DNA of 64,000 nt from Octopus vulgaris. Taxonomy: Eukaryota. The notes below the pieces were generated by a model. That model had not been told where the DNA came from, did no database searches, and worked only from the letters and a program-made list of their open reading frames with translations. Location: contig OX597819.1 of NCBI GenBank assembly GCA_951406725.2, positions 69,378,001 through 69,442,000 of the forward strand. The letters run 5' to 3'. The position numbers and the translations under genes were made by a program. This document shows positions 10,298-58,880 of the stretch, piece by piece (positions within the stretch are counted from its first letter, which is position 1; each line of letters begins with the position of its first letter).

Positions 10298-12098
10298 TTA
10301 TTATTATTATTATTCTATGTTTGACTTTTGCTTTATATTTGTACAAGTTGGCTCCAAGTCTCACCCAGAGACCTCAAGAGGCAACAGGTTGGAAGTTCGT
10401 ATTGTTGTTATGCCTAGTGTGCCATATATTTGGTTTTGTATTTAGTGTTGTACTAGTGAATGCCTAAAAAAAACCGAAACTTATGCTTGTTTTAAAATTT
10501 GAGGTTACATAGAAAGTATTTTGCGTAGGATATGAGCAGTTCCCTTGAGCACTATCTTTTGAATTTCTGTCATTTTGGGGTTTCCTGGTATCTGAGTTAG
10601 GTAGCTATCAGCCCCTTTTGCTATCATTCCCAGGGCACCTATGACAACAGGTATTGTTTTAGTCTTCATTTCCACATTTTGCTGATTTCTATTTCAAGAT
10701 CTTTATATTTGCTCAGTTTTGGTAGGTCTTGACAGATATGTTTATATCGATTGGGACAGTCATATCAATGAGGAGGCATGTTCTTTGTTTGAAGTCTTTC
10801 AATGTGATGTCTGGCCTATTTGCATCTATCTTTCTGTCAGTTTGAATGGGGGAGTTCCAGAGGAGTGAGATGTGGTCATTTTCAAGCACTGGAAGTGATT
10901 TGTGTTCCCACCAGTTTTTTCATGGGGCAAATCCAGGTTTTTGCAGATTACCCAGTGAATATATTGTGCAGCTCTATCATGCCTGTTGAGATACTCTGTA
11001 GGCGCAAGAAGTCTGCAGTTGGAGACAACATGATCAATGGTTTCATTTTGTTGTTGACATACACGACATGTTAGGCTACTGCCGTTCTTTAATATGTTAG
11101 CCTGGTAGTTCCTTGTTGGTAGGCATTGATCTTGAGCTGCTATGATAAACCCTTCTGTTTCAGATTTTAAACTAGAGGCCATTAGCCATTGATGTGTCAG
11201 GGCTTTGTCAACATCTGCATTATTCGCTCTCTTTAAGTATTTGCCATAGAGAGGTTTTTCTTGCTATTTATCATTCAGAATATCTAAGGCAGCAGTTTTA
11301 GCACGGGTTTTCATGCGTTTAGCTTTTTCTGTGCTTGTTTCTTGTATGTCTAATTCCGAAATTTGTTGTATTCGGAATTCACTTAGATATTCCTTTGCCT
11401 GTTTTGTTACTGAGTATGATGCTTTCTTGTTTTCATGTTTTGAGACAAGTTTTAACATCCAGTCCTCAGAGTTTTTCAGGTAGGTGTCTAGGCCAATTGT
11501 AGTAATCTTCATTGTTATTGCCAGTTGGAAAAGTTCACGGCCCCCCTCTTTCCTTGGCAGATAAAGTCGTTCTATATCTGCCTTAGGGTGGTGCATTCTA
11601 TGCATTGTCAACAGTTTTCGTATTTTTCTGTCAAGATTACATATTTCAGTAATTGACCAGTTAACGATGTTGAAACTGTAAGTCACGACTGGTATGGCTA
11701 AAGGATTGATCGCTTCGATCCTGTTTCTCGCATTTAGCTCTGTCTTGAGTATTGCTCTTACTCTGCGATAACATTCTCTCCTGATCCTTTCCTTCATCAC
11801 TGAATGCCTAATTCCGTCCCCTTCAATTACCCCTAGGTACTTGTAGCTCTCTGCTGGGTCTAATTCTTTTATGACATTCTGCTGGTCAAGGTAAACGTTA
11901 GATGTTTCTGTCATTATTCCTTTGATAAAGGTAGGTAGCTTTTGCACATTTATCGAGGCCGAATTGCATTCTGATGTCATCGCTGAATTGTTTAACAATC
12001 GTTAGTAAGCCCTTGAGTTGATGGTCATTTTTTGCAAAGAGTTTTAAATCATCCATGTAAATGAGATGATTTATATATTTATCAAACATTTTATATCC

Positions 12099-12195: not shown

Positions 12196-12704
12196 TTGTG
12201 TTTGCACAACTTCGAACGCTGGAGATGTACTACGGTGCCAGCTGTTCACTACCAGTGAACTAAGGTAGCAACACTTATTTTCCAGCACCATCCCCAGTAT
12301 TCGAGCAGTTCCAAGCAGTGCTGTTTTCTGCAAGTCCTCCGCCCTTATTGCAGCACCTATTTGTTCTATGTACTCCTCAAGATTTTTATTCGTAGTATTG
12401 GTACTACTACGACCTTTTTCAGCGAGCACAACTGCTTAACCTCCCAAGCTAACCTGTCATATCTATCGACTCTTCTTTCTCCTTTATCGCATACCTTATT
12501 ATCAGCAGGGCATGCTCTATCGATGTTTGCTTTCTTTCTCAATTACCACCATGTCTGGTTTCCTATTTTCAATTTCATAGTCGCACTGAATCATAAAATC
12601 CCATAGGATCTTTGCATTATCATTTTCGTCGATGCCTTCGAGTTCATGTTCGTACAATTTTTTGTTTTGTCAAGTCCATACTTGTTGCAAAGTGTCCAAT
12701 GGAT
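12196..12704 (-). mobile_element. R4/Dong element B, 3' portion
   Basis: IHWTLCNKYGL, endonuclease remnants and the C-terminal LQKTALLGTARIL. The 3' end runs into (TAA)n. Confidence 0.88.
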
Positions 12705-12930
12705 GGTGAGGCATCTTGACAGTAGTAGTAAAGCAGAATTCACTCTATATATCCACAGAAAGCAGCAGCAACCACCTAAAAATCCATTTTTAGCAATAAC
12801 ATAAATCTATTTTTGGTTGAAATTTTCGGTGAACAATTACGGAAAATTTTTGGTGAAAATTTTCGAAAAATTTTTGGGGAAAATTTTCGGCAAATGCTTT
12901 TTGAAAATTTTTGTCGAAAAATTTCCCAAA

Positions 12931-13050
12931 AAAGTATGGAAGGCCAGCAGTGCCAAAATCACAAAGTATGGAAGGGCAGCGGCACCAAAATCACAAAGTA
13001 GGGAAGACCAACGGTGCCAAAATCACAAAGTATGCAAAGCCATTATTGGG
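12931..13050 (+). repeat. 32-bp tandem subrepeat (aaagtatggaaggccagcggtgccaaaatcac); further arrays at 13546-13665, 15088-15303, 17563-17682, 19115-19330
   Basis: Unit starts at 12931, 12963, 12995 and 13027. Every array ends in aaagccattattgggtaaa. Confidence 0.92.
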
Positions 13051-14763
13051 TAAAATTTTCGGAAAATTTTTGGTAAAAAGTTTCGACAAATTATTGGGTA
13101 AGATTTTCGGTGAAAATTTTCGAAAAATTTTTTATGAAAATTTTTAGGTAAAAGTTTTGGGTAAAACTTTCAGTGAAAATTCTCGATAAATTTTTGGATA
13201 AAATTTTCAGTGAAAATTTTAGAAAAATTTTGGTGAAAATTTTCGCCAAAAATTTTCAAAACAATTTTCAAAAAAACCATATAATGAATATGCTCTATAT
13301 GCTGAAGTCTATTAATGTCGACATCGTCATAGTTGTTAAGTGTAAATCAGAATCTGGTGTATCGTGGATGGTGAAGCATCTTGACAGTAGTAGTGAAGCA
13401 GAATTCACACTATATATATACAGAAAGCAGCAGCAGCCACCTAAAGATCTATTTTTAGCAATAGCATAAATCTATTTTTGGTTGAAATTTTCGGTGAACA
13501 ATTTCGGAAAATTTTTAGTGAAAATTTTCGAAAAATTTTCCCCAAAAAGTATGGAAAGGCCAGCCGTGCCAAAATCACAAAGTATGGAAGGCCAGCGGCG
13601 CCAAAATCACAAAGTATGGAAGGCCAGTGGTGCTCAAATCCCAAAGTATGGAAAGCCATTATTGGGTAAAATTTTCGGTCAAAATTTTCAAAAAATTTTT
13701 GAGGGAAATTTTTGGGTAAAAGTTTTGGTGATAATTTTCGAAAAACCATATAACGAATATGCTCCATATGCTGTAGTCTATAAACTTCGACATCGTTTTC
13801 GGTTAAAATGCTCGGAAAAATTTGGAGAAAATTTTCGTCTAAATTTTCTGAAAATTTTTTTTGTGAATATTTTCGAAAAATTTTTGGGTGAAATTTTCGG
13901 TGAATATTTTCAAAAATTTTGGGTAAAATTTTCAGTGAAAATTTTCGAAAGAAATTTGGGTAAAATTTTAGGTAATATTTTGGATAAATTTTTTGGTAAA
14001 ATTTTCGGTAAAATTTTCAAAAATTTTTTCGGCAAAATTTTCAGTGAAAATTTTCGAAAAATTTTTGGGTAAAATTTTAGGTAAAATTTTTAAAACATTT
14101 TTGGGTAACACTTTCGGGGAAAATTTTCGAAAAAAACCATATAACGAATATGCTTTATATGCTGAAGTCAATAAACGTCGACATCGTCATAGTTGTTAAG
14201 TGTATCGTGGATGGTAAGGCATCTTGACAGTAGTAGTAGAGCAGAATTCACTCTATATATACACAGAAATCAGCAGCAGCCACCTAAAAATCTATTTTTA
14301 GCAATAACATAAACCTATTTTTCGTTAAAATTTTCGGTGAACAATTTCGGAAAATATTTGGGTAAAATTTTTGGTGAAAATTTTCCAAAAATTTTTTATG
14401 AAAATTTTCGGCAAAAATTTTGAAAAAATTTTGGGTAAAATTTTCGATGAAAATTTTCGAATAATTTTGGGAGAAACTTTTCGAAAAACAATATAACGAA
14501 TATGCTCCATATGCTGAAGTCTATAAACGTCGACATTGTTTTCGCTGAAAACTTTCGGCGGAAAATTTTCGGGAAATATTTGAAGAATTTTCGAAATATA
14601 TTTGGGTAAAATTTATGGAAAATTTTTGGTGAAAATTTTCGAAACAATTTGGGTAAAACTTTCAGTGTAAATTCTCGATAAATTTTTGGATAAAATTTTC
14701 AGTGAAAATTTTAGAAAAATTTTGGTGAAAATTTTCGCCAAAAATTTTCAAAACAATTTTCAA

Positions 14764-14871
14764 AAAAACCATATAATGAATATGCTCTATATGCTGAAGT
14801 CTATTAATGTCGACATCGTCATAGTTGTTAAGTGTAAAGCAGAATCTGGTGTATCGTGGATGGTGAAGCAT
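14764..14871 (-). pseudogene. rep: Truncated CRESS-DNA/circovirus-like Rep N-terminus, the only uninterrupted copy
   Basis: MLHHPRYTRFCFTLNNYDDVDINRLQHIEHIHYMVF. CFTLNNY is rolling-circle motif I, followed after 15 aa by the Y-hydrophobic strand YMVF. Motif II (HLQG) is absent. Confidence 0.75.
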
Positions 14872-14902
14872 CTTGACAGTAGTAGTAAAGCAGAATTCAC
14901 TC

Positions 14903-14909
14903 TATATAT
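14903..14909 (-). promoter_or_regulatory. TATA box ~30-37 nt upstream of the Rep-like ATG, repeated in most modules
   Basis: Minus strand reads aTATATAGagtgaattctgctttactactactgtcaagATG. Confidence 0.5.
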
Positions 14910-17900
14910 TCACAGCCACCTAAAAATCTATTTCTAGATATAACATAAATCTAGTTTTCGTTAAAATTTTCGTTGAATAAATTCGGAAAATTTCTGTGTA
15001 AAATTTTTGATGAAAATTTTCAAAAAATTTTTTAGGAAAATTTTCGGCAAAAATCTTTTGAAAATTTTTGCCGAAAATTTTCCCAAACAAGTATGGAAGG
15101 CCAGTGGTGCAAAAATCAAAAATTCTGGAAGGCCAGCGGTGCCAAAATCACAAAGTATTGAAGGCCAACGGTGCCAAAATCACAAAGTATGGAAAGGAAG
15201 CGGGGTTAAAATCTCAAAGTATGGAAGGCCAACGGTGCCGAAATCACAAAGTATGGAAGGCGAACGTTGCCAAAATCCCAAAGTATGGAAAGCCATTATT
15301 GGGTAAAATTTTCGGAAAATTTTTGGTGAAAGTTTTCGACAAATTATTGGGTAAAATTTTCACTGAAAATTTTCGAAAAGTTTTTGGGTAAAATTTTCAG
15401 TGAAAATTTTCGAAAGAATTTTGGGTAAAATGTTAGGTAAAATTTTGGATAAATTTTTGGGGAAGATTTTCGAAAAACCATATAACGAATATGGTTCATA
15501 TGCTTTAGTCTATAAACGTCGACATCATTTTCGGTTAAAATGTTCGGACAAATTTGGATTCGTCTAAATTTTCGGAAAATTCTTCGTGAAAATTTTCGAA
15601 AAATTTTTCGGTAAAATTTTCGTTGAAAATTTCCGAAAAATTTTTGGGTAAAATATTTAGTGAAAATTTTCAAAAAAATTTTGGGTAAAATTTTAGGTAA
15701 AACTTTGGATAAATTTTTGGGGAAAATTTTCAGTAAAATTTTCAAACAATTTTTCGGCAAAACTTTTGGTGAAAATTTTCAAAAACTATATAACGAATAT
15801 ATATGCTCCATCTGCTGAAGTCTATAAACATCGATATCGTCTAGTTGTTAAGTGTAAAGCAGAATCTAGCGTATCGTGGATGGTGAGGCATCTTAACTGT
15901 AGTAGTACACCAGAATTCACTCTATTTACTTTCCAGGGAAAATTTTCACCAAAAATTTACAAAAAATTTTAGGTAAAATTTCCTGTGAAAATTTTCGAAA
16001 AATAATATAACGAATATGCTCCATATGCTGAAGTCTATTAACGTTGACATTGTTTTCGTTGAAAATGTTCGGGGAAAAATTTTCGGGAAATATTTAGTGA
16101 AAATTTTCCAAAAATATTTGGGTAAAATTTTCGGAAAATTTTTGTTGAAAATTTTCAAAAAAATTTGTGTAAAATTTTCGATAAATTTTTGGATAAAATT
16201 TTCGGTTCAAATTTTCAAAAAATTGTGGGGAAAATTTTCGAAAAATTGTTTGGAAAATTTTGGGCAAAAGTTTTCAAAAATTTTGAGCAAAATTTTCGGT
16301 GAAAATTTTCGAAAAATTTTGGGTAAAATTTTAGGTAAAATTTTGGATAAATTTTTTGTGAAAATTTTCGAAAAATATTTTGGGAAAATTTTCGAAAGAA
16401 TTTTGGGTAAAATTTTATGTAAAATTTTGGATAAAAGTTTGGGGAAAATTTTCGGTAAAATTTTCAAAAATTTTTCGGCAAAATTTTTGGTGAAAATTTT
16501 CGTAAAACTATATAACGAGTATGCTCCATATGCTGTAGTCTATGAACGTCGATATCGTTTTCGGTTAAAATTTTCGGCTAAATTTTCGGAAAATTTTTCG
16601 CCAAAATTTTTCGGCTAAAGTTTTCGGCAAAAGTTTTCAAAAAATTTTGGGTAAAATTTTCGGTGAAAATTTTGGAAAGAATTTTGGGTAAAATTTTAGG
16701 TAAAATTTTGGATAAATCTTTGGGGAAAATTTTCGAAAAACCATATAACGAATATGCTCCATATGCTGTAGTCTATGAACGTCGATATCGTTTTCGGTTA
16801 AAATTTTCGGCTAAATTTTAGGAAAATTTTTCGCCAAAATTTTTCGGCTAAAGTTTTCGGCAAAAGTTTTCAAAAAATTTTGGGTAAAATTTTCGGTGAA
16901 AATTTTGGAAAGAATTTTGGGTAAAATTTTAGGTAAAATTTTGGATAAATCTTTGGGGAAAATTTTCGAAAAACCATATAACGAATATGCTCCATATGCT
17001 GTAGTCTATGAACGTCGATATCGTTTTCGGTTAAAATTTTTCGGCTAAAGTTTTCGGCAAAAGTTTTCAAAAAATTTTGGGTAAAATTTTCGGTGAAAAT
17101 TTTGGAAAGAATTTTGGGTAAAACTTTAGGTAAAATTTTGGATAAATCTTTGGGAAAATTTTCGAAAAACCATATAACGAATATGCTCCATATGCTGTAG
17201 TCTATATACTTCGACATCGTTTTCGGTTAAAATGTTCGGAAAAATTTGGAGAAAATTTTCGTCTAAATTTTCAAAACAATTTTCAAAAAAACCATATAAT
17301 GAATATGCTCTATATGCTGAAGTCTATTAATGTCGACATCGTCATAGTTGTTAAGTGTAAATCAGAATCTGGTGTATCGTGGATGGTGAAGCATCTTGAC
17401 AGTAGTAGTGAAGCAGAATTCACACTATATATATACAGAAAGCAGCAGCAGCCACCTAAAGATCTATTTTTTTAGCAATAGCATAAATCTATTTTTGGTT
17501 GAAATTTTCGGTGAACAATTTCGGAAAATTTTTAGTGAAAATTTTCGAAAAATTTTCCCCAAAAAGTATGGAAGGCCAGCCGTGCCAAAATCACAAAGTA
17601 TGGAAGGCCAGCGGCGCCAAAATCACAAAGTATGGAAGGCCAGTGGTGCTCAAATCCCAAAGTATGGAAAGCCATTATTGGGTAAAATTTTCGGTCAAAA
17701 TTTTCAAAAAATTTTTGAGGGAAATTTTTGGGTAAAAGTTTTGGTGATAATTTTCGAAAAACCATATAACGAATATGCTCCATATGCTGTAGTCTATAAA
17801 CTTCGACATCGTTTTCGGTTAAAATGCTCGGAAAAATTTGGAGAAAATTTTCGTCTAAATTTTCTGAAAATTTTTTTGTGAATATTTTCGAAAAATTTTT

Positions 17901-20900
17901 GGTGAAATTTTCGGTGAATATTTTCAAAAATTTTGGGTAAAATTTTCAGTGAAAATTTTCGAAAGAAATTTGGGTAAAAGTTTAGGTAATATTTTGGATA
18001 AATATTTTGGTAAAATTTTCGGTAAAATTTTCAAAAATATTTTCGGCAAAATTTTCAGTGAAAATTTTGCCGAAAAATTTTTGGGTAAAATTTTAGGTAA
18101 AATTTTTAAAACATTTTTGGGTAACACTTTCGGGGAAAATTTTCGAAAAAACCATATAACGAATATGCTTTATATGCTGAAGTCAATAAACGTCGACATC
18201 GTCATAGTTGTTAAGTGTATCGTGGATGGTAAGGCATCTTGACAGTAGTAGTAGAGCAGAATTCACTCTATATATACACAGAAATCAGCAGCAGCCACCT
18301 AAAAATCTATTTTTAGCAATAACATAAACCTATTTTTCGTTAAAATTTTCGGTGAACAATTTCGGAAAATATTTGGGTAAAATTTTTGGTGAAAATTTTC
18401 CAAAAATTTTTTATGAAAATTTTCGGCAAAAATTTTGAAAAATTTTGGGTAAAATTTTCGATGAAAATTTTCGAATAATTTTGGGAGAAACTTTTCGAAA
18501 AACAATATAACGAATATGCTCCATATGCTGAAGTCTATAAACGTCGACATTGTTTTCGCTGAAAACTTTCGGCGGAAAATTTTCGGGAAATATTTGAAGA
18601 ATTTTCGAAATATATTTGGGTAAAATTTATGGAAAATTTTTGGTGAAAATTTTCGAAACAATTTGGGTAAAACTTTCAGTGTAAATTCTCGATAAATTTT
18701 TGGATAAAATTTTCAGTGAAAATTTTAGAAAAATTTTGGTGAAAATTTTCGCCAAAAATTTTCAAAACAATTTTCAAAAAAACCATATAATGAATATGCT
18801 CTATATGCTGAAGTCTATTAATGTCGACATCGTCATAGTTGTTAAGTGTAAATCAGAATCTGGTGTATCGTGGATGGTGAAGCATCTTGACAGTAGTAGT
18901 AAAGCAGAATTCACTCTATATATTCACAGAAAGCAGCAGCAGCCACCTAAAAATCTATTTCTAGATATAACATAAATCTAGTTTTCGTTAAAATTTTCGT
19001 TGAATAAATTCGGAAAATTTCTGGGTAAAAATTTTGATGAAAATTTTCAAAAAATTTTTTAGGAAAATTTTCGGCAAAAATCTTTTGAAAATTTTTGCCG
19101 AAAATTTTCCCAAACAAGTATGGAAGGCCAGTGGTGCAAAAATCACAAATTCTGGAAGGCCAGCGGTGCCAAAATCACAAAGTATTGAAGGCCAACGGTG
19201 CCAAAATCACAAAGTATGGAAAGGAAGCGGGGTTAAAATCTCAAAGTATGGAAGGCCAACGGTGCCGAAATCACAAAGTATGGAAGGCGAACGTTGCCAA
19301 AATCCCAAAGTATGGAAAGCCATTATTGGGTAAAATTTTCGGAAAATTTTTGGTGAAAGTTTTCGACAAATTATTGGGTAAAATTTTCACTGAAAATTTT
19401 CGAAAAGTTTTTGGGTAAAATTTTCAGTGAAAATTTTCGAAAGAATTTTGGGTAAAATTTTAGGTAAAATTTTGGATAAATTTTTGGGGAAGATTTTCGA
19501 AAAACCATATAACGAATATGGTTCATATGCTTTAGTCTATAAACGTCGACATCATTTTCGGTTAAAATGTTCGGACAAATTTGGATTCGTCTAAATTTTC
19601 GGAAAATTCTTCGTGAAAATTTTCGAAAAATTTTTCGGTAAAATTTTCGTTGAAAATTTCCGAAAAATTTTTGGGTAAAATATTTAGTGAAAATTTTCAA
19701 AAAAATTTTGGGTAAAATTTTAGGTAAAACTTTGGATAAATTTTTGGGGAAAATTTTCAGTAAAATTTTCAAACAATTTTTCGGCAAAATTTTTGGTGAA
19801 AATTTTCAAAAACTATATAACGAATATGCTCCATATGCTGAAGTCTATAAACATCGATATCGTCTAGTTGTTAAGTGTAAAGCAGAATCTAGCGTATCGT
19901 GGATGGTGAGGCATCTTAACTCTATTTAAATTCCAGGGAAAATTTTCACCAAAAATTTACAAAAAATTTAGGTAAAATTTCCTATGAAAATTTTCGAAAA
20001 ATAATATAACGAATATGCTCCATATGCTGAAGTCTATTAACGTTGACATTGTTTTCGTTGAAAATGTTCGGGGAAAAATTTTCGGGAAATATTTAGTGAA
20101 AATTTTCCAAAAATATTTGGGTAAAATTTTCGGAAAATTTTTGTTGAAAATTTTCAAAAAAATTTGTGTAAAATTTTCGATAAATTTTTGGATAAAATTT
20201 TCGCTTCAAATTTTCGAAAAATTGTGGGGAAAATTTTCGAAAAATTGTTTGGAAAATTTTGGGCAAAAGTTTTCAAAAAATTTTGAGTAAAATTTTCGGT
20301 GAAAATTTTCGAAAGAATTTTGGGTAAAATTTTAGGTAAAATTTTGGATAAATTTTTTGTGAAAATTTTCGAAAAATATTTTGGGAAAATTTTCGAAAGA
20401 ATTTTGGGTAAAATTTTATGTAAAATTTTGGATAAAAGTTTGGGGAAAATTTTCGGTAAAATTTTCAAAAAATTTTTCGGCAAAATTTTTGGTGAAAATT
20501 TTCGTAAAACTATATAACGAGTATGCTCCATATGCTGTAGTCTATGAACGTCGATATCGTTTTCGGTTAAAATTTTCGGCTAAATTTTCGGAAAATTTTT
20601 CGCCAAAATTTTTCGGCTAAAGTTTTCGGCAAAAGTTTTCAAAAAATTTTGGGTAAAATTTTCGGTGAAAATTTTGGAAAGAATTTTGGGTAAAATTTTA
20701 GGTAAAATTTTGGATAAATTTTTGGGGAAAATTTTCGAAAAACCATATAACGAATATGCTCCATATGCTGTAGTCTATATACTTCGACATCGTTTTCGGT
20801 TAAAATGTTCGGAAAAATTTGGAGAAAATTTTCGTCTAAATTTTCGGAATATTTTTTGGGAAAATTTTCGAAAACTTTTTGGGTAAAATTTTCGGTGAAA

Positions 20901-20917
20901 ATTTTCGAAACATTTCG

Positions 20918-22842
20918 GTGACGACTCTTACATTCTTTCTGGGCTACTGGTGTACTTTGACTGGTAATATGTCATACGGTTTCACCATTTTGTCCACAAA
21001 TTCTGCGCTTATCACTTTCGGAATTGTTGTCTATTCTGTATTTGATGTAATTTGTTCTTCTGGTTTTAAATCACTTTTAATCATCCATGACCATCTTTTT
21101 TCTCTGTCTGTCTGTCTTATTTTTAACACCCCTACGAAATTGTCCATGCATTCTTTTCCTTATCCACCTATTTTCAGTTTCATTCAATCTCAAGTGCTTG
21201 TACAGTGCGTTATCTTTAGAGCCTTCCATCCTACACAGCCCTGACCTTATTACTTCCAATAATAGTGGTTCTGTGGCATTTTTGATAAACCATTCTATGT
21301 TGTTTTCTTCTGATCTAATGCTGTGTTCACATTGCATCAGTCCTCTTTCCCCTCTTTTTCTTGGTACATACAGTCTGTCTTTGCCACTTTTTTGTTAGAG
21401 TAACCCATATCTAGTCAGTAACTTCTTTGTCTTTCTGTCTAAGCTGTTTAGTTTGTCTATTGTCCATGTAATCGCATGGACAGTAGACTCTATATGTAAG
21501 GAGTGAAACCGCCCAGGTTTCGATAGCTTTAATCTTATTCCGTCTCGTTTAATTTCAAATTAAGGAACAGTCTCAGTCTGCGCAAGTACTCCACTTTAAT
21601 TTTTCTGTCATTTCTTTCTCAATCAATTTATCCATCTCAAATATCCCCAAATACTTATAGACCGTTTCCTCTATCTGCTTCATAACCTCCCCCGACGGTA
21701 TCGTTAGCCCGTCTATACATTTGACTTTGCCTCTCTTCAAGAATAACACACCACACTTTTTCAGTCCGAACTCCATTCTGATATCAGCACTGAAAGTATG
21801 CACCTTATCCATGAGGGAACTGACTTGGAATTCATCTTTACCGTAAATTTGAGGTCATTCATGAATAACAAGTAGTTGACATTTTGTTGGCGGCTTTTGA
21901 ATACACATCCAGTCTTTGTTTTCCTCAGAATCAGTACAAAGATCAGTGGGGTCAGGCAGTCCCCTTGGAAAATGCTTCTCCTGATTTCGATTGTCCCTAA
22001 ACTTCTTCCTGTCAGTTCCGACCTCCATTTGCCATACTATTTCCAAACAATCGCTCAGCTTTTGATACAATACCAAATGGGTTCATACATTCCTTAATCC
22101 AAGAATGTGGGATCGTGTCGTACGCCTTGCGATAATTGATCCATGATATTGCTAAGTTAGTTTATCTCCTCTTGCAGTCTCTAAGTACAGTTTTGTCTAC
22201 CAGGAGTTGATGCTTGTTACCTCTGCACTTACGCTTGCATCCATTCTGCTCATGTGGAAGGACTCCATTGACTATGTGACTATTGCAATCAATAATTTCT
22301 ATATAAATAGCAAGCTGGATATCGGCCTATAATTGTTTACCGTATCGCTTTCTTCGATGTTTTTCAAGCACAGCACTGTCTTACCCATTGTCAACCACTT
22401 TGGTGTTACTTGGTCGGCATATAACAAAGCGTTGGGTTATGCAGCTATTTGTGCATGACATTCTCTAAACCTTTTGTTCCAGTAGTATTGAACTCCCTCT
22501 GCTCCCGGGAACTTCCAGCTACCCATTTTTTTGCTTAGACTTTCAATTCCATTTGGTATCAACTTTTCATCTATACACTCTCCATTTATTTCTTTATAGA
22601 ATCTCTTCTGATCTATTCAGAATAACCTATTCTGCCGGTATCCCTTCATTCTTTAGCCGTATCTTACCATCTTTGCAACGAGGCGTTATTTCAGTTCATC
22701 CATTACTACTTTCAGGCCCTTTCTTTCAATATCATACTTCCTGTTCAGTGCCCTGTATCTGTCTTCGCTTTTAAGCTCCCCCTTCTCTTTTCGGTCTAAC
22801 ACAGAAATGTCCATCGAGAGCATATGTAACCCCACCTGTACG
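20918..22842 (-). mobile_element. R4/Dong element B, 5' portion (RT and zinc knuckle), degraded
   Basis: IFQGDCLTP, VNYLLFMNDLKF, MEFGLKKCG, YKYLG, then RICGQNGETV*HITS..AQKECKSRH running into the satellite. The 5' end abuts (TAA)n. Confidence 0.9.
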
Positions 22843-56439: not shown

Positions 56440-57000
56440 AATGATGAACGGGTGCCACCCTACAAGCCATGTTTCGCCACTGGACCTTTTCAGAAAGTTT
56501 ATGTCATCCCTTATGTAGGCGCTTTCACTCTCAACGTGCAAGTCACTTCTATAAAGATTGTTCTTATATGTAAATTCAAACTTTTCCTGAGAAGGACCGC
56601 AACACCCCGTTCTTGCCTATAAGAGAGGGTATGGAAAAGAGATTCAAAATCTGGCAGTCCAAGAAGAAGGCAGAGGCCGTAGAAAGCCTCTTTATTCGTG
56701 GAAGCACTATAGCATACTTGGTTCTCGGAAAAGGTTACGGAGATTATCAGATTAATTGTAATGAAAGCATTGAGAATAGTGACTGCGCTGAGCAATAGCA
56801 GATATACATTGTGCATTGAAACAAAGCAGAGAGGGAGGCCTTATTCTAAAATTTGCGACTAGGAATAAATGTCTCAATGTCAATCTGTACCTTTGCTGCG
56901 AATTCCTATGCAGCAGCTGAGGCAGCTTTCCTAAAGCCAGAGTTCAAAGGAACCGTTGGAAGAAAAGAACGAAAACTGACCCGGTCAGCCTTTTTCAGGT
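56440..57000 (-). mobile_element. CR1/Crack-like LINE ORF2 remnant, internally deleted
   Basis: [15 protein letters not shown]...IETFIPSRKF..FNAQCISAIAQRSHY (endonuclease-RT linker), then AYIRDDINF/EKVQWR (resembles PY..DI..LEKVQRR), then a (CAT)n tail. Confidence 0.6.
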
Positions 57001-57432
57001 TGAATATCTTGGCAGTGCTTCGCAAACCGCTCAGGCAAGCGGAGTCCCATTTTACCGATGTACGGAGGAGGACAGAAAGAGCAGATGATGCAGTAAATGA
57101 TAGTGCTAGAAATGCAGGTAAAGGAGTCAGGAATATGATATGGACAATGATGGGTGCCTGTGAGGATGGTGGTGTTGGAGAAGTAGGGAGAAATGCGGCA
57201 GCCTCTGCGGGAGCAGGGGAACGAACCAGGCTGTGAGGTTGGGTTAGGGATGAAACTATGGACCAGGAGATCACGTAGGTTGTGGGCTCGTTTGAAGGAG
57301 AGGGATAGGTTGGGGAAGATTGTGAAGTGGAGGGGTCGGACTGGAATCGCTGGAAAGCTCGGAAATGGTGCGTTGGAGGGGTGGTAGGTGAGGGGAAACT
57401 TGAGACGAGCAACGACAGGGCGGTTGCGAGGA
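57000..57432 (-). mobile_element. Penelope-like element fragment (RT thumb-linker and GIY-YIG)
   Basis: [61 protein letters not shown]. Confidence 0.9.
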
Positions 57433-57434
57433 GA

Positions 57435-57469
57435 GAGATAGATAGATAGGTAGATAGAGATAGAGATAA

Positions 57470-57506
<37 letters not shown>

Positions 57507-57519
57507 TAGACAGACAGAC

Positions 57520-57616
<97 letters not shown>
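57435..57616. repeat. (GATA)n/(GACA)n
   Basis: Directly visible. Confidence 0.98.
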
Positions 57617-57639
57617 CCTTTCCCTGTATCATATTTAGA

Positions 57640-58880
57640 TGAGCTTTTATGCTTATCTTACTAAAGTGGACTCATTTTTGAGGTATCTTTTAAAAAGTTC
57701 AGAAGAACAGGAAGAAAGGAAGGAGAAATTTGGTGCAGTTCGAGTCCCAATCATCTAGATATCGTGTGCCTGTAGAAGAAGCCCCACTTGGCCAGCAGAA
57801 ACGGAATGCCACTCTAGGAGCAGATTGTTCGTCGGTACCAGTTTCTCGGGAAATCAATTAAGGGAGAGAGTGGCAGAATTATCAAGAGAGGTGACTCTAC
57901 CGTAGAGAGATAAACTGAATTGTCCAATCGTTTCCAAGCCAGCATTACGGTCCATGTTCAAAAAGACCTTCGTTTGTATGTCAAATGCACCAAGAAAGGT
58001 CAATTTGAGGCATTAAAAGACCTGTTCGATATCACCAAAGTCCACTGTAAAATGTCTCCTAGCTGATGACAAAAAACTATGCCCCATCCAACTCCAAAGC
58101 AAGCGAGAAATGGGCTATTCGACAGGCAAAAATGCAAGCAAACACATTATCCACTCTTCCAAGAGAAGATGCTCTGACACTGAAGCCTCTCGTATTTTTT
58201 GAAACCCAACACTGGATACTGACAGTGACTCTGAAAAAGAAGAGCTTGAAGAGTACAGTTATGGTGAAGATGACTGAGTTGCTCAAAATGATAGAGATAG
58301 TGATGGCACTTATTCCTTCACAATAAAGGAACAACAAATTTGCAATTGATACGAGACTTGTAAGTGGAACAGACGTCTCTACTAAAAATCCAAGCTCTGA
58401 GTCACCAAGGCATTTCCAAGCCACTCTTCAAGAAAGATGGTGAAATGTAGAAACACTTGATCCATACGCTGCGCAATCAGCAATGGAGCCTGCATACCGA
58501 TGGTAAACATATTGACGGAAATGAATATCAAGAATGAAACCAGTGAAATGAAGCCGACTTCTTTCAAGCCGTATGATGGCAACGCTGAGACCATTGCAAA
58601 AGGATTGAAAAGCGCCTTGGACGAATTTCGCTTGTGGGGTGCAATGTCAATGATTATTTCTGATACGATGAGTGTGAATACAAGACGAAAGAGTTGGGTA
58701 GTGGTTAGACTGCAGAGAACTTTCTTGAGCAAAGGCTATGATGAGCCACAGTTAGTGAGACTAAATGTCTAGAGCTGAACGTTATGCAGAGCTATTGCAA
58801 GAGTTACTACCCTACAAGATTGCTTTGAAATACTTGACAAATCACTGAAAGCGAGAGCAATGGCGTACAAAGTTTTATGA
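57640..58880 (+). mobile_element. Degraded DDE transposase remnant, probably hAT/hATm-like
   Basis: DGNAETIAKGLKSALDEFRLWGAMSMIISDTMSVNTRRKSWVVVRLQ resembles the DTTxxNTG block. Many frameshifts. Confidence 0.55.

Follow-up and report, generated by a model that had tools for sequence, protein, structure and literature searches.

A virus-derived rep fragment as a subunit of a dispersed minisatellite in the genome of Octopus vulgaris

The stretch of DNA analysed in this study, hereafter the window, comprises 64,000 nucleotides of the 2.8-Gb Octopus vulgaris assembly (C6:69.378-69.442 Mb). It contains a composite minisatellite array that sits within a long interspersed nuclear element (LINE) and includes modules derived from the start of the replication gene (rep) of a circular Rep-encoding single-stranded DNA (CRESS-DNA) virus. 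A preliminary description of the window had read this array as a satellite built from the start of a circovirus-like Rep gene. Its limits, positions 12700-20921, were borne out on re-examination, and Rep modules are present, but the array is a patchwork of three subunits rather than a single-unit run. These subunits are 231 cores of 12-13-bp AAAATTTT units, 24 units of 32 bp and the Rep modules, with the two non-viral units making up the greater part of the array. Most of the array forms a dimer with a period of 4,016 bp, the copies of which are 97.2% identical (43 mismatches in 3,730 columns).

An ATG and both halves of the Rep part are retained in eight modules, of which one is open, three have a stop at codon 11, two have a 1-nt deletion and two have a 17-nt deletion. 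The open copy thus reads as had been claimed, and the stops, the 1-nt deletions and the short deletions reported for particular copies were all seen. The number of second halves, given before as about 22, was roughly right; the actual number is 24, with 8 lying within the ATG-bearing modules and 16 standing alone. A ninth ATG module, which is cut after 5 codons, makes the array junction at about 12700-12714. The TATATAG box said to precede each module was found ahead of seven of the nine ATG modules and is lost in the copies ending at 15891 and 19914. The spacing between TATA and ATG was 39 nt in 73 of the 88 leaders having a TATA box.

Sequence comparison gives good support for the view that the module came from a CRESS-virus rep, of which it represents the promoter, the leader and the 5' end, and the origin proposed for it in the preliminary description therefore stands. 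Among 24,736 Pfam models, the only one matched by the 36-aa peptide was Viral_Rep (PF02407; E 0.012, 16.3 bits, profile positions 2-28). Moreover, BLASTP showed the peptide to be identical at 21 of 35 positions (60%, pairwise E 2e-15) to a complete HUH nuclease domain on C14 of the same genome, which was found by searching the genome with the family (E 1.3e-19) and itself scores 81.6 bits. The differences between a satellite copy and the C14 Rep were distributed over codon positions 1, 2 and 3 as 11, 3 and 17 (p 0.008), and this avoidance of second positions suggests that the source of the satellite and the C14 gene were related viral genes, whose divergence took place under selection on the protein and preceded the capture. 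An exact 19-mer of the module occurred 62 times in the genome, and its reversed control did not occur. For the search of 5.8 billion proteins, the 104-aa in-genome Rep domain, and not the 36-aa peptide, served as the query; its relatives among 1.84 billion representatives were CRESS Reps, 8,588 of them at E up to 0.001 and one of them named by source. Among 288 compared proteins, the closest to the peptide were the C14 Rep domain and two unnamed look-alikes, and 72 of the 83 viral contigs retrieved as Rep relatives matched as well. A sequence search of the PDB with the 36-aa peptide gave no match. The satellite copies do not show the HUH motif II, the catalytic Tyr motif III, the helicase or the purifying selection of a functional Rep gene; they end at codon 36 and diverge neutrally. 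When the 12-13-bp and 32-bp units were compared with 12 fossil loci and the 83 viral contigs (first 10 matches), the matches lay in the Rep part, the sole exception among the matches listed being a weak 35-bp match.

The module is widely dispersed. With the in-genome Rep query, at least 143 matches were obtained (150 scored of 173 candidates), two of which are viral fossils on C14 and C15; the remaining matches, at least 141, belong to the satellite and form about 35 clusters on at least 13 contigs, as counted from the listing. In the satellite matches listed, the likeness to Rep ends at residue 36-38, and the few longer ones continue as repeat translation. All 81 aligned copies pass into AAAATTTT-type units after the Rep part, and 19 of 19 further Rep sites that were retrieved are embedded in the same repeats. 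No direct source copy with rep extending beyond codon 36 was present among the 143 matches listed or the 19 further loci. When arrays were chosen by the 32-bp unit, 17 of 18 had no Rep module. The longest colinear matches between the window array and the others extend over about 400-960 bp at 75-87% identity, which indicates that they are not pieces of a single visible master. A search between the repeat units of 20 arrays for other captured genes yielded 25 short segments, none of them a shared viral-looking one as judged by clustering. In addition, the Rep part is covered in public runs under three species labels, although these labels are coded and may denote close kin. Its presence on 13 contigs and in these runs argues that the module is not a contaminant, and the earlier statement that a Rep-derived piece has become host satellite DNA is upheld. 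One run guessed to be RNA also covers the module; it covers the LINE as well and may contain DNA, and was not accepted as evidence of expression.

The copies diverge neutrally, as counted on ungapped copies only, with those bearing indels excluded. In 81 such copies, the differences by codon position were 170, 161 and 166 (p 0.88). Saturation was about equal for synonymous, non-synonymous and stop changes. Stop codons were present in 27 of 104 ungapped copies, against 22.6 (15-31) expected in a neutral simulation. The divergence between copies was 10.3% within arrays and about 10.6% overall between them, yet 39 of 78 copies had their nearest neighbour within their own array. Likewise, the tree of 82 copies had a star-like shape that included local clusters (33 label changes, where shuffling gave 63.4; the bootstrap is rough), and three C5 sites have one variant in common. 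The idea that equal divergence within and between arrays means no local evolution was rejected on account of this local clustering. The single junction between the Rep part and the repeat units, together with the neutral decay, points to one capture that was followed by amplification as non-coding DNA.

In the window, the array replaces 19 bp of the LINE, as judged against another LINE copy, and has 3-bp and 4-bp microhomologies at its ends. A target deletion with microhomologies is a signature of templated insertion in microhomology-mediated break repair. The interrupted element is presumably a non-long-terminal-repeat retrotransposon, judging from its reverse-transcriptase, zinc-knuckle and endonuclease motifs; its fragments gave no Pfam match. 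Elsewhere in the genome, the blocks measure about 0.2-14 kb and start and stop in any subunit, beside unrelated DNA. No shared ends were found, by eye or by flank BLAST, among the blocks and matches listed, the ends being fuzzy. Inversions were present in 28 of 70 blocks, and some blocks were local duplicates of one another. In the 63 blocks with both ends visible, a repeat of at least 7 bp at both ends was seen seven times; one of these is a credible target-site duplication, and the other six sit in simple, AT-only or satellite flanks. The credible one, an apparent 14-bp duplication, surrounds a short array of pure 32-bp units at C11:20.44 Mb (L152:4898-5140). Some arrays (L024:5345-5700, L015:3400-3550 and L027) adjoin other minisatellites, of GATCAAAGA and CATCAAACATTTT types, as if families had been patched in together. 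The coordinates of the features in and around the window array are collected in Table 1. Apart from these, a fragment of a second, different LINE reverse transcriptase (a 245-aa open frame) lies at 11264-12001 on the minus strand, directly after the (TAA)n tail of the interrupted LINE, and a frame at 56985-57671 on the minus strand has what we take to be a Penelope-like GIY-YIG-type end beside an (AGAT)n repeat.

Table 1. Features of the composite array and its insertion site (window positions)
Feature	Position	Strand	Remarks
Whole composite minisatellite array (12-13-bp AAAATTTT units, 32-bp units, Rep-derived modules)	12700-20921	-	Within LINE
Open copy, first 36 codons of CRESS-virus rep	14764-14871	-	Motif I; without HUH motif or catalytic Tyr
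TATA box (14902-14908) and 5' leader of viral rep promoter	14872-14908	-	Leader like C14 and C15 fossil leaders
Rep module, stop at codon 11	13272-13379	-	
Rep module, stop at codon 11	17287-17394	-	
Rep module, stop at codon 11	18778-18885	-	
Rep module, 17-nt deletion	14132-14222	-	Partner 18147-18237
Rep module, 1-nt deletion, without TATA	15781-15891	-	Partner 19808-19914
Truncated ninth module (leader and 5 codons) at junction	12700-12846	-	4-bp microhomology with LINE
Higher-order repeat copy 1, period 4,016 bp	13204-16911		
Higher-order repeat copy 2, 97.2% identical to copy 1	17220-20910		
32-bp sub-array	15089-15295	-	Non-viral; unit also in Rep-free arrays
Further 32-bp sub-arrays	12931-13042, 13546-13658, 17563-17674, 19116-19322		
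Upstream part of interrupted non-LTR retrotransposon (reverse transcriptase, zinc-knuckle region)	20922-22800	-	
Downstream part of interrupted retrotransposon (endonuclease-like end)	12210-12699	-	Without target-site duplication

The octopus genome also holds fossils of CRESS viruses, at nine sites at least, one of them nearly whole. The HUH domain at C14:64.34 Mb (L001:1385-1795) is an open, single-copy frame of 104 aa with a TATA box, inserted in a Merlin/IS1595-like transposase (a weak ISXO2 match). Five Rep-bearing arrays lie around it at C14:57-71 Mb (L170-L173 and L182), each with at least one nonanucleotide-like leader; this clustering is probably a matter of local hopping plus coincidence. 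The fossil at C15:38.11 Mb (L133:4805-7060), reached through a search with a close relative, is an endogenous CRESS virus of more than unit length. It comprises a helicase half and a rep broken by an internal deletion and a frameshift; a capsid-like frame rich in arginine runs on the opposite strand, and a distance of 2,144 bp separates two TAGTATTAC stem-loops. The leader and the first codons of this fossil are similar to those of the satellite. Neither the helicase half nor the capsid-like open reading frame was named by Pfam, and for the latter Circo_capsid is a lead only (score 0.90; the family on 29-31% of members). As a query, the C15 helicase half gave 10 matches at 8 sites; the loci L137-L144 (C3, C30, C1, C17 and C15) hold degenerate pieces of CRESS helicases that share 33-70% identity with the C15 copy. 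A further helicase-half fossil at C11:25.61 Mb (L136) lies in a 299-aa open frame that shares 88% identity with a protein of O. bimaculoides. A capsid-like match lies opposite this frame, and the fossil is possibly an orthologous, perhaps maintained, insertion. In a 45-row tree, which had no classified circovirus reference, three octopus-named helicases and one unnamed protein formed a clade (100/99). The helicase half of the lineage groups with unclassified environmental Reps, and its best named matches were Crucivirus-224 and an uncultured marine virus; the lineage was accordingly placed in no family. Three unnamed Logan proteins (P0007, P0157 and P0035) are frameshifted or partial Reps very similar to the octopus fossils, up to 79% identical over 52 aa, and are probably fossils from related hosts; an Atlas search for P0035 returned nothing.

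Taken together, these data make it probable that the Rep module is a neutral passenger which, after one capture, was carried in a dispersed modular minisatellite by break repair and local duplication. An octopus-associated lineage of CRESS-DNA viruses has left several fossils in the germline. On one occasion, a virus piece of about 200 bp, with the TATA box, the leader and the first 36 rep codons, became attached to a modular minisatellite rich in AT, probably because rep codons 35-38 bear a short likeness to the AAAATTTT unit. Thereafter, the piece was a non-coding subunit, with recombination between the short units shuffling, truncating and inverting the modules, while copies of blocks 0.2-14 kb long arrived at new sites without any transposon ends. 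These blocks most likely served as break-patching templates with template switches or were re-inserted as extrachromosomal pieces; next would have come short-range hopping within a chromosome and duplication in tandem, of which the 4-kb dimer of the window is an example. The passenger status is suggested by the 32-bp arrays that have no Rep module and by the embedding of every further Rep site in the same repeats. The break-repair reading draws on the target deletion, the microhomologies, the near absence of target-site duplications, the frequent inversions and the lack of shared ends.

Several observations weigh against this explanation. The Viral_Rep score of the peptide is under the curated cut-off of 26. 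A full rep from the module's own source, proposed as a target in the preliminary description, was not present among the 143 matches listed or the 19 further loci; the direct source copy of the virus was not found, and DNA identity to the retrieved fossils does not exceed about 72%. Furthermore, the 32-bp units were less diverged between sites in the Rep-free arrays (0.118) than in the Rep-bearing arrays (0.18), a comparison biased by the picking of the Rep-free arrays for their likeness to the window, and the founder may therefore already have held the Rep piece. The empty site in the LINE is represented by a second copy of the LINE and by the loose ends of contigs, and not by an orthologous empty allele, and no contig bridging the junction between LINE and array was present among the matches listed, so the insertion in the window rests on the assembly. 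Finally, the star-like tree would also be compatible with amplification in a burst under the control of a helper virus.

Such a helper virus figures in a rather unlikely alternative, in which the founder was a minicircle of viral control region and AT-rich host DNA that was amplified in trans by viral Rep in the germline and inserted repeatedly, with the leader as the nick site. Virus-host hybrids are readily formed by a plant geminivirus (PMC6293997), the virus reached the octopus germline repeatedly, and the arrays are concatemeric and inverted, as well as having the star-like tree. In 100 of 147 copies, the (TAC)3 run of the leader fits AxTAxTAC, the core of the porcine circovirus (PCV) origin, where cleavage requires the core and not the stem (PMC2690592). 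The core site occurs in TACTACTAC and TAATATTAC types, the canonical TAATATTAC being found in 10 of the 147 copies, at 6 sites. However, no module has a stem-loop origin with a nonanucleotide; TAGTATTAC occurs once in all retrieved arrays, without a stem, and the satellite leaders examined fold at -0.2 to -1.8 kcal/mol (TAATATTAC leaders at -0.2 to -1.1) against -13.3 for the C15 origin. The core lies between TATA and ATG, while the real origin of the lineage is about 80 nt upstream of the ATG, and as part of a (TAC)3 repeat it is conserved no better than the adjacent leader bases. The TAATATTAC copies are farther from the outgroup (37.7 differences of 108, against 34.8) and hence look derived. 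Moreover, Rep-free arrays are equally dispersed and inverted, and the arrays do not end at the core. The (CAG)n of the leader was considered as PCV hexamers and rejected, since it is on the opposite strand and is a trinucleotide repeat. For a related proposal, that the repeat family began as a hybrid of viral control region and AT-rich octopus DNA and that viral Rep nicked the leader during germline infections and drove copying and re-insertion across the genome, with the TAATATTAC subfamily as a selfish improvement, the prospects are slightly poorer still. The preliminary description had itself called the array a tandemly amplified defective replicon. One trait of such replicons is present, namely a truncated rep 5' end and promoter in repeated copies, but this reading is not sustained in view of the absent origin stem-loop, the mostly non-viral units that are also found in Rep-free arrays, and the descent from one junction.

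It is quite improbable that a non-autonomous rolling-circle transposon of the Helitron, Helentron or Replitron type captured the viral piece and that the arrays are its internal tandem repeats. Satellites within Helentrons are common in bivalves. The missing target-site duplications would fit HUH transposons (PMC10288648), and the Nicotiana repeat GRD3 has been compared to Helitrons (PMC5014472), but the octopus arrays end anywhere in any subunit beside unrelated DNA, the insertion in the window is a target deletion with microhomology, and the related Reps of the genome are viral, with a superfamily 3 (SF3)-type helicase and a capsid-like gene. We give the same low credence to a co-opted antiviral template, with modules kept or spread to supply PIWI-interacting RNA (piRNA) or small interfering RNA (siRNA) against the rep 5' end of the virus. 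The retained TATA and leader, the inverted copies, which could yield double-stranded RNA, and the production of siRNA by the geminivirus repeats of yam (PMC5014472) are in its favour; set against these are the neutral rate of divergence, the distance of about 28-33% between the copies and the other fossils, the second-half-only modules without a promoter and the same build in Rep-free arrays. That the likeness to Rep is due to chance, or the array to contamination or faulty assembly, is scarcely credible. The peptide is short, scores under the Pfam cut-off and has no PDB sequence match, but it is 60% identical, with a codon-position bias, to a full Rep domain, the module is present on 13 contigs and in runs under three species labels, and the two 4-kb copies differ at 43 sites. 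Passive carriage of a captured fragment by the minisatellite is the explanation that we favour.

This repeat is a clean and traceable case of a virus gene fragment turned into a subunit of an animal satellite, and it points to a CRESS-virus lineage tied to octopuses. As a sequence tag in an otherwise featureless AT-rich repeat, the Rep piece allows the dispersal of a satellite without transposon ends to be followed site by site and put to the test. If the virus-mobilised reading were true, it would mean that animal satellite DNA can be spread in trans by a passing single-stranded DNA virus. Interest is limited mainly by the fact that repeats of rep plus promoter are already known in tobacco and yam. 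No report of an octopus CRESS fossil or of a Rep-derived animal satellite was found in open full texts, although the supplementary tables of endogenous-virus screens may list Octopus; a term search of the main text of a paper on horizontal transfer in octopus (PMC6011040) gave 0 occurrences of 'virus'.

The octopus element can be compared with several known systems. With the Reps of Circoviridae and other Cressdnaviricota (PF02407) it has the N-terminal motif I in common, but it keeps no catalytic motif. The C15 fossil of its virus lineage is ambisense and has the TAGTATTAC stem-loop, with about 2.1 kb between its two origins. Replitrons and Helitrons (PMC10288648) likewise place HUH-related sequence in multicopy repeats, usually without target-site duplication; these transposons have defined ends, whereas the octopus arrays have no transposase, terminal direct repeats, hairpin or fixed ends. 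The virus-host minicircles of beet curly top Iran virus (BCTIV; PMC6293997) combine a viral control region with AT-rich host DNA, as the octopus repeat does, and by analogy a minicircle of this type could be a route to a virus-host chimera. However, the BCTIV minicircles have retained the stem-loop origin and exist as extrachromosomal, somatic molecules, whereas the octopus element is chromosomal, inherited and without a stem-loop. The closest precedents are the geminivirus-related DNA (GRD) families GRD2, GRD3, GRD5 and GRD53 of Nicotiana and EGV1 of yam, which share with the octopus repeat a degenerate, truncated rep 5' part with control DNA, in multiple repeats that evolve neutrally. In Nicotiana, GRD consists of direct repeats of truncated rep and origin-like DNA (PMC5014472) and clusters on one or two plant chromosomes. 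Unlike GRD, the octopus repeat has no origin, keeps only 36 codons, alternates with minisatellite units of non-viral nature and lies scattered, in an animal genome, over 13 contigs or more.

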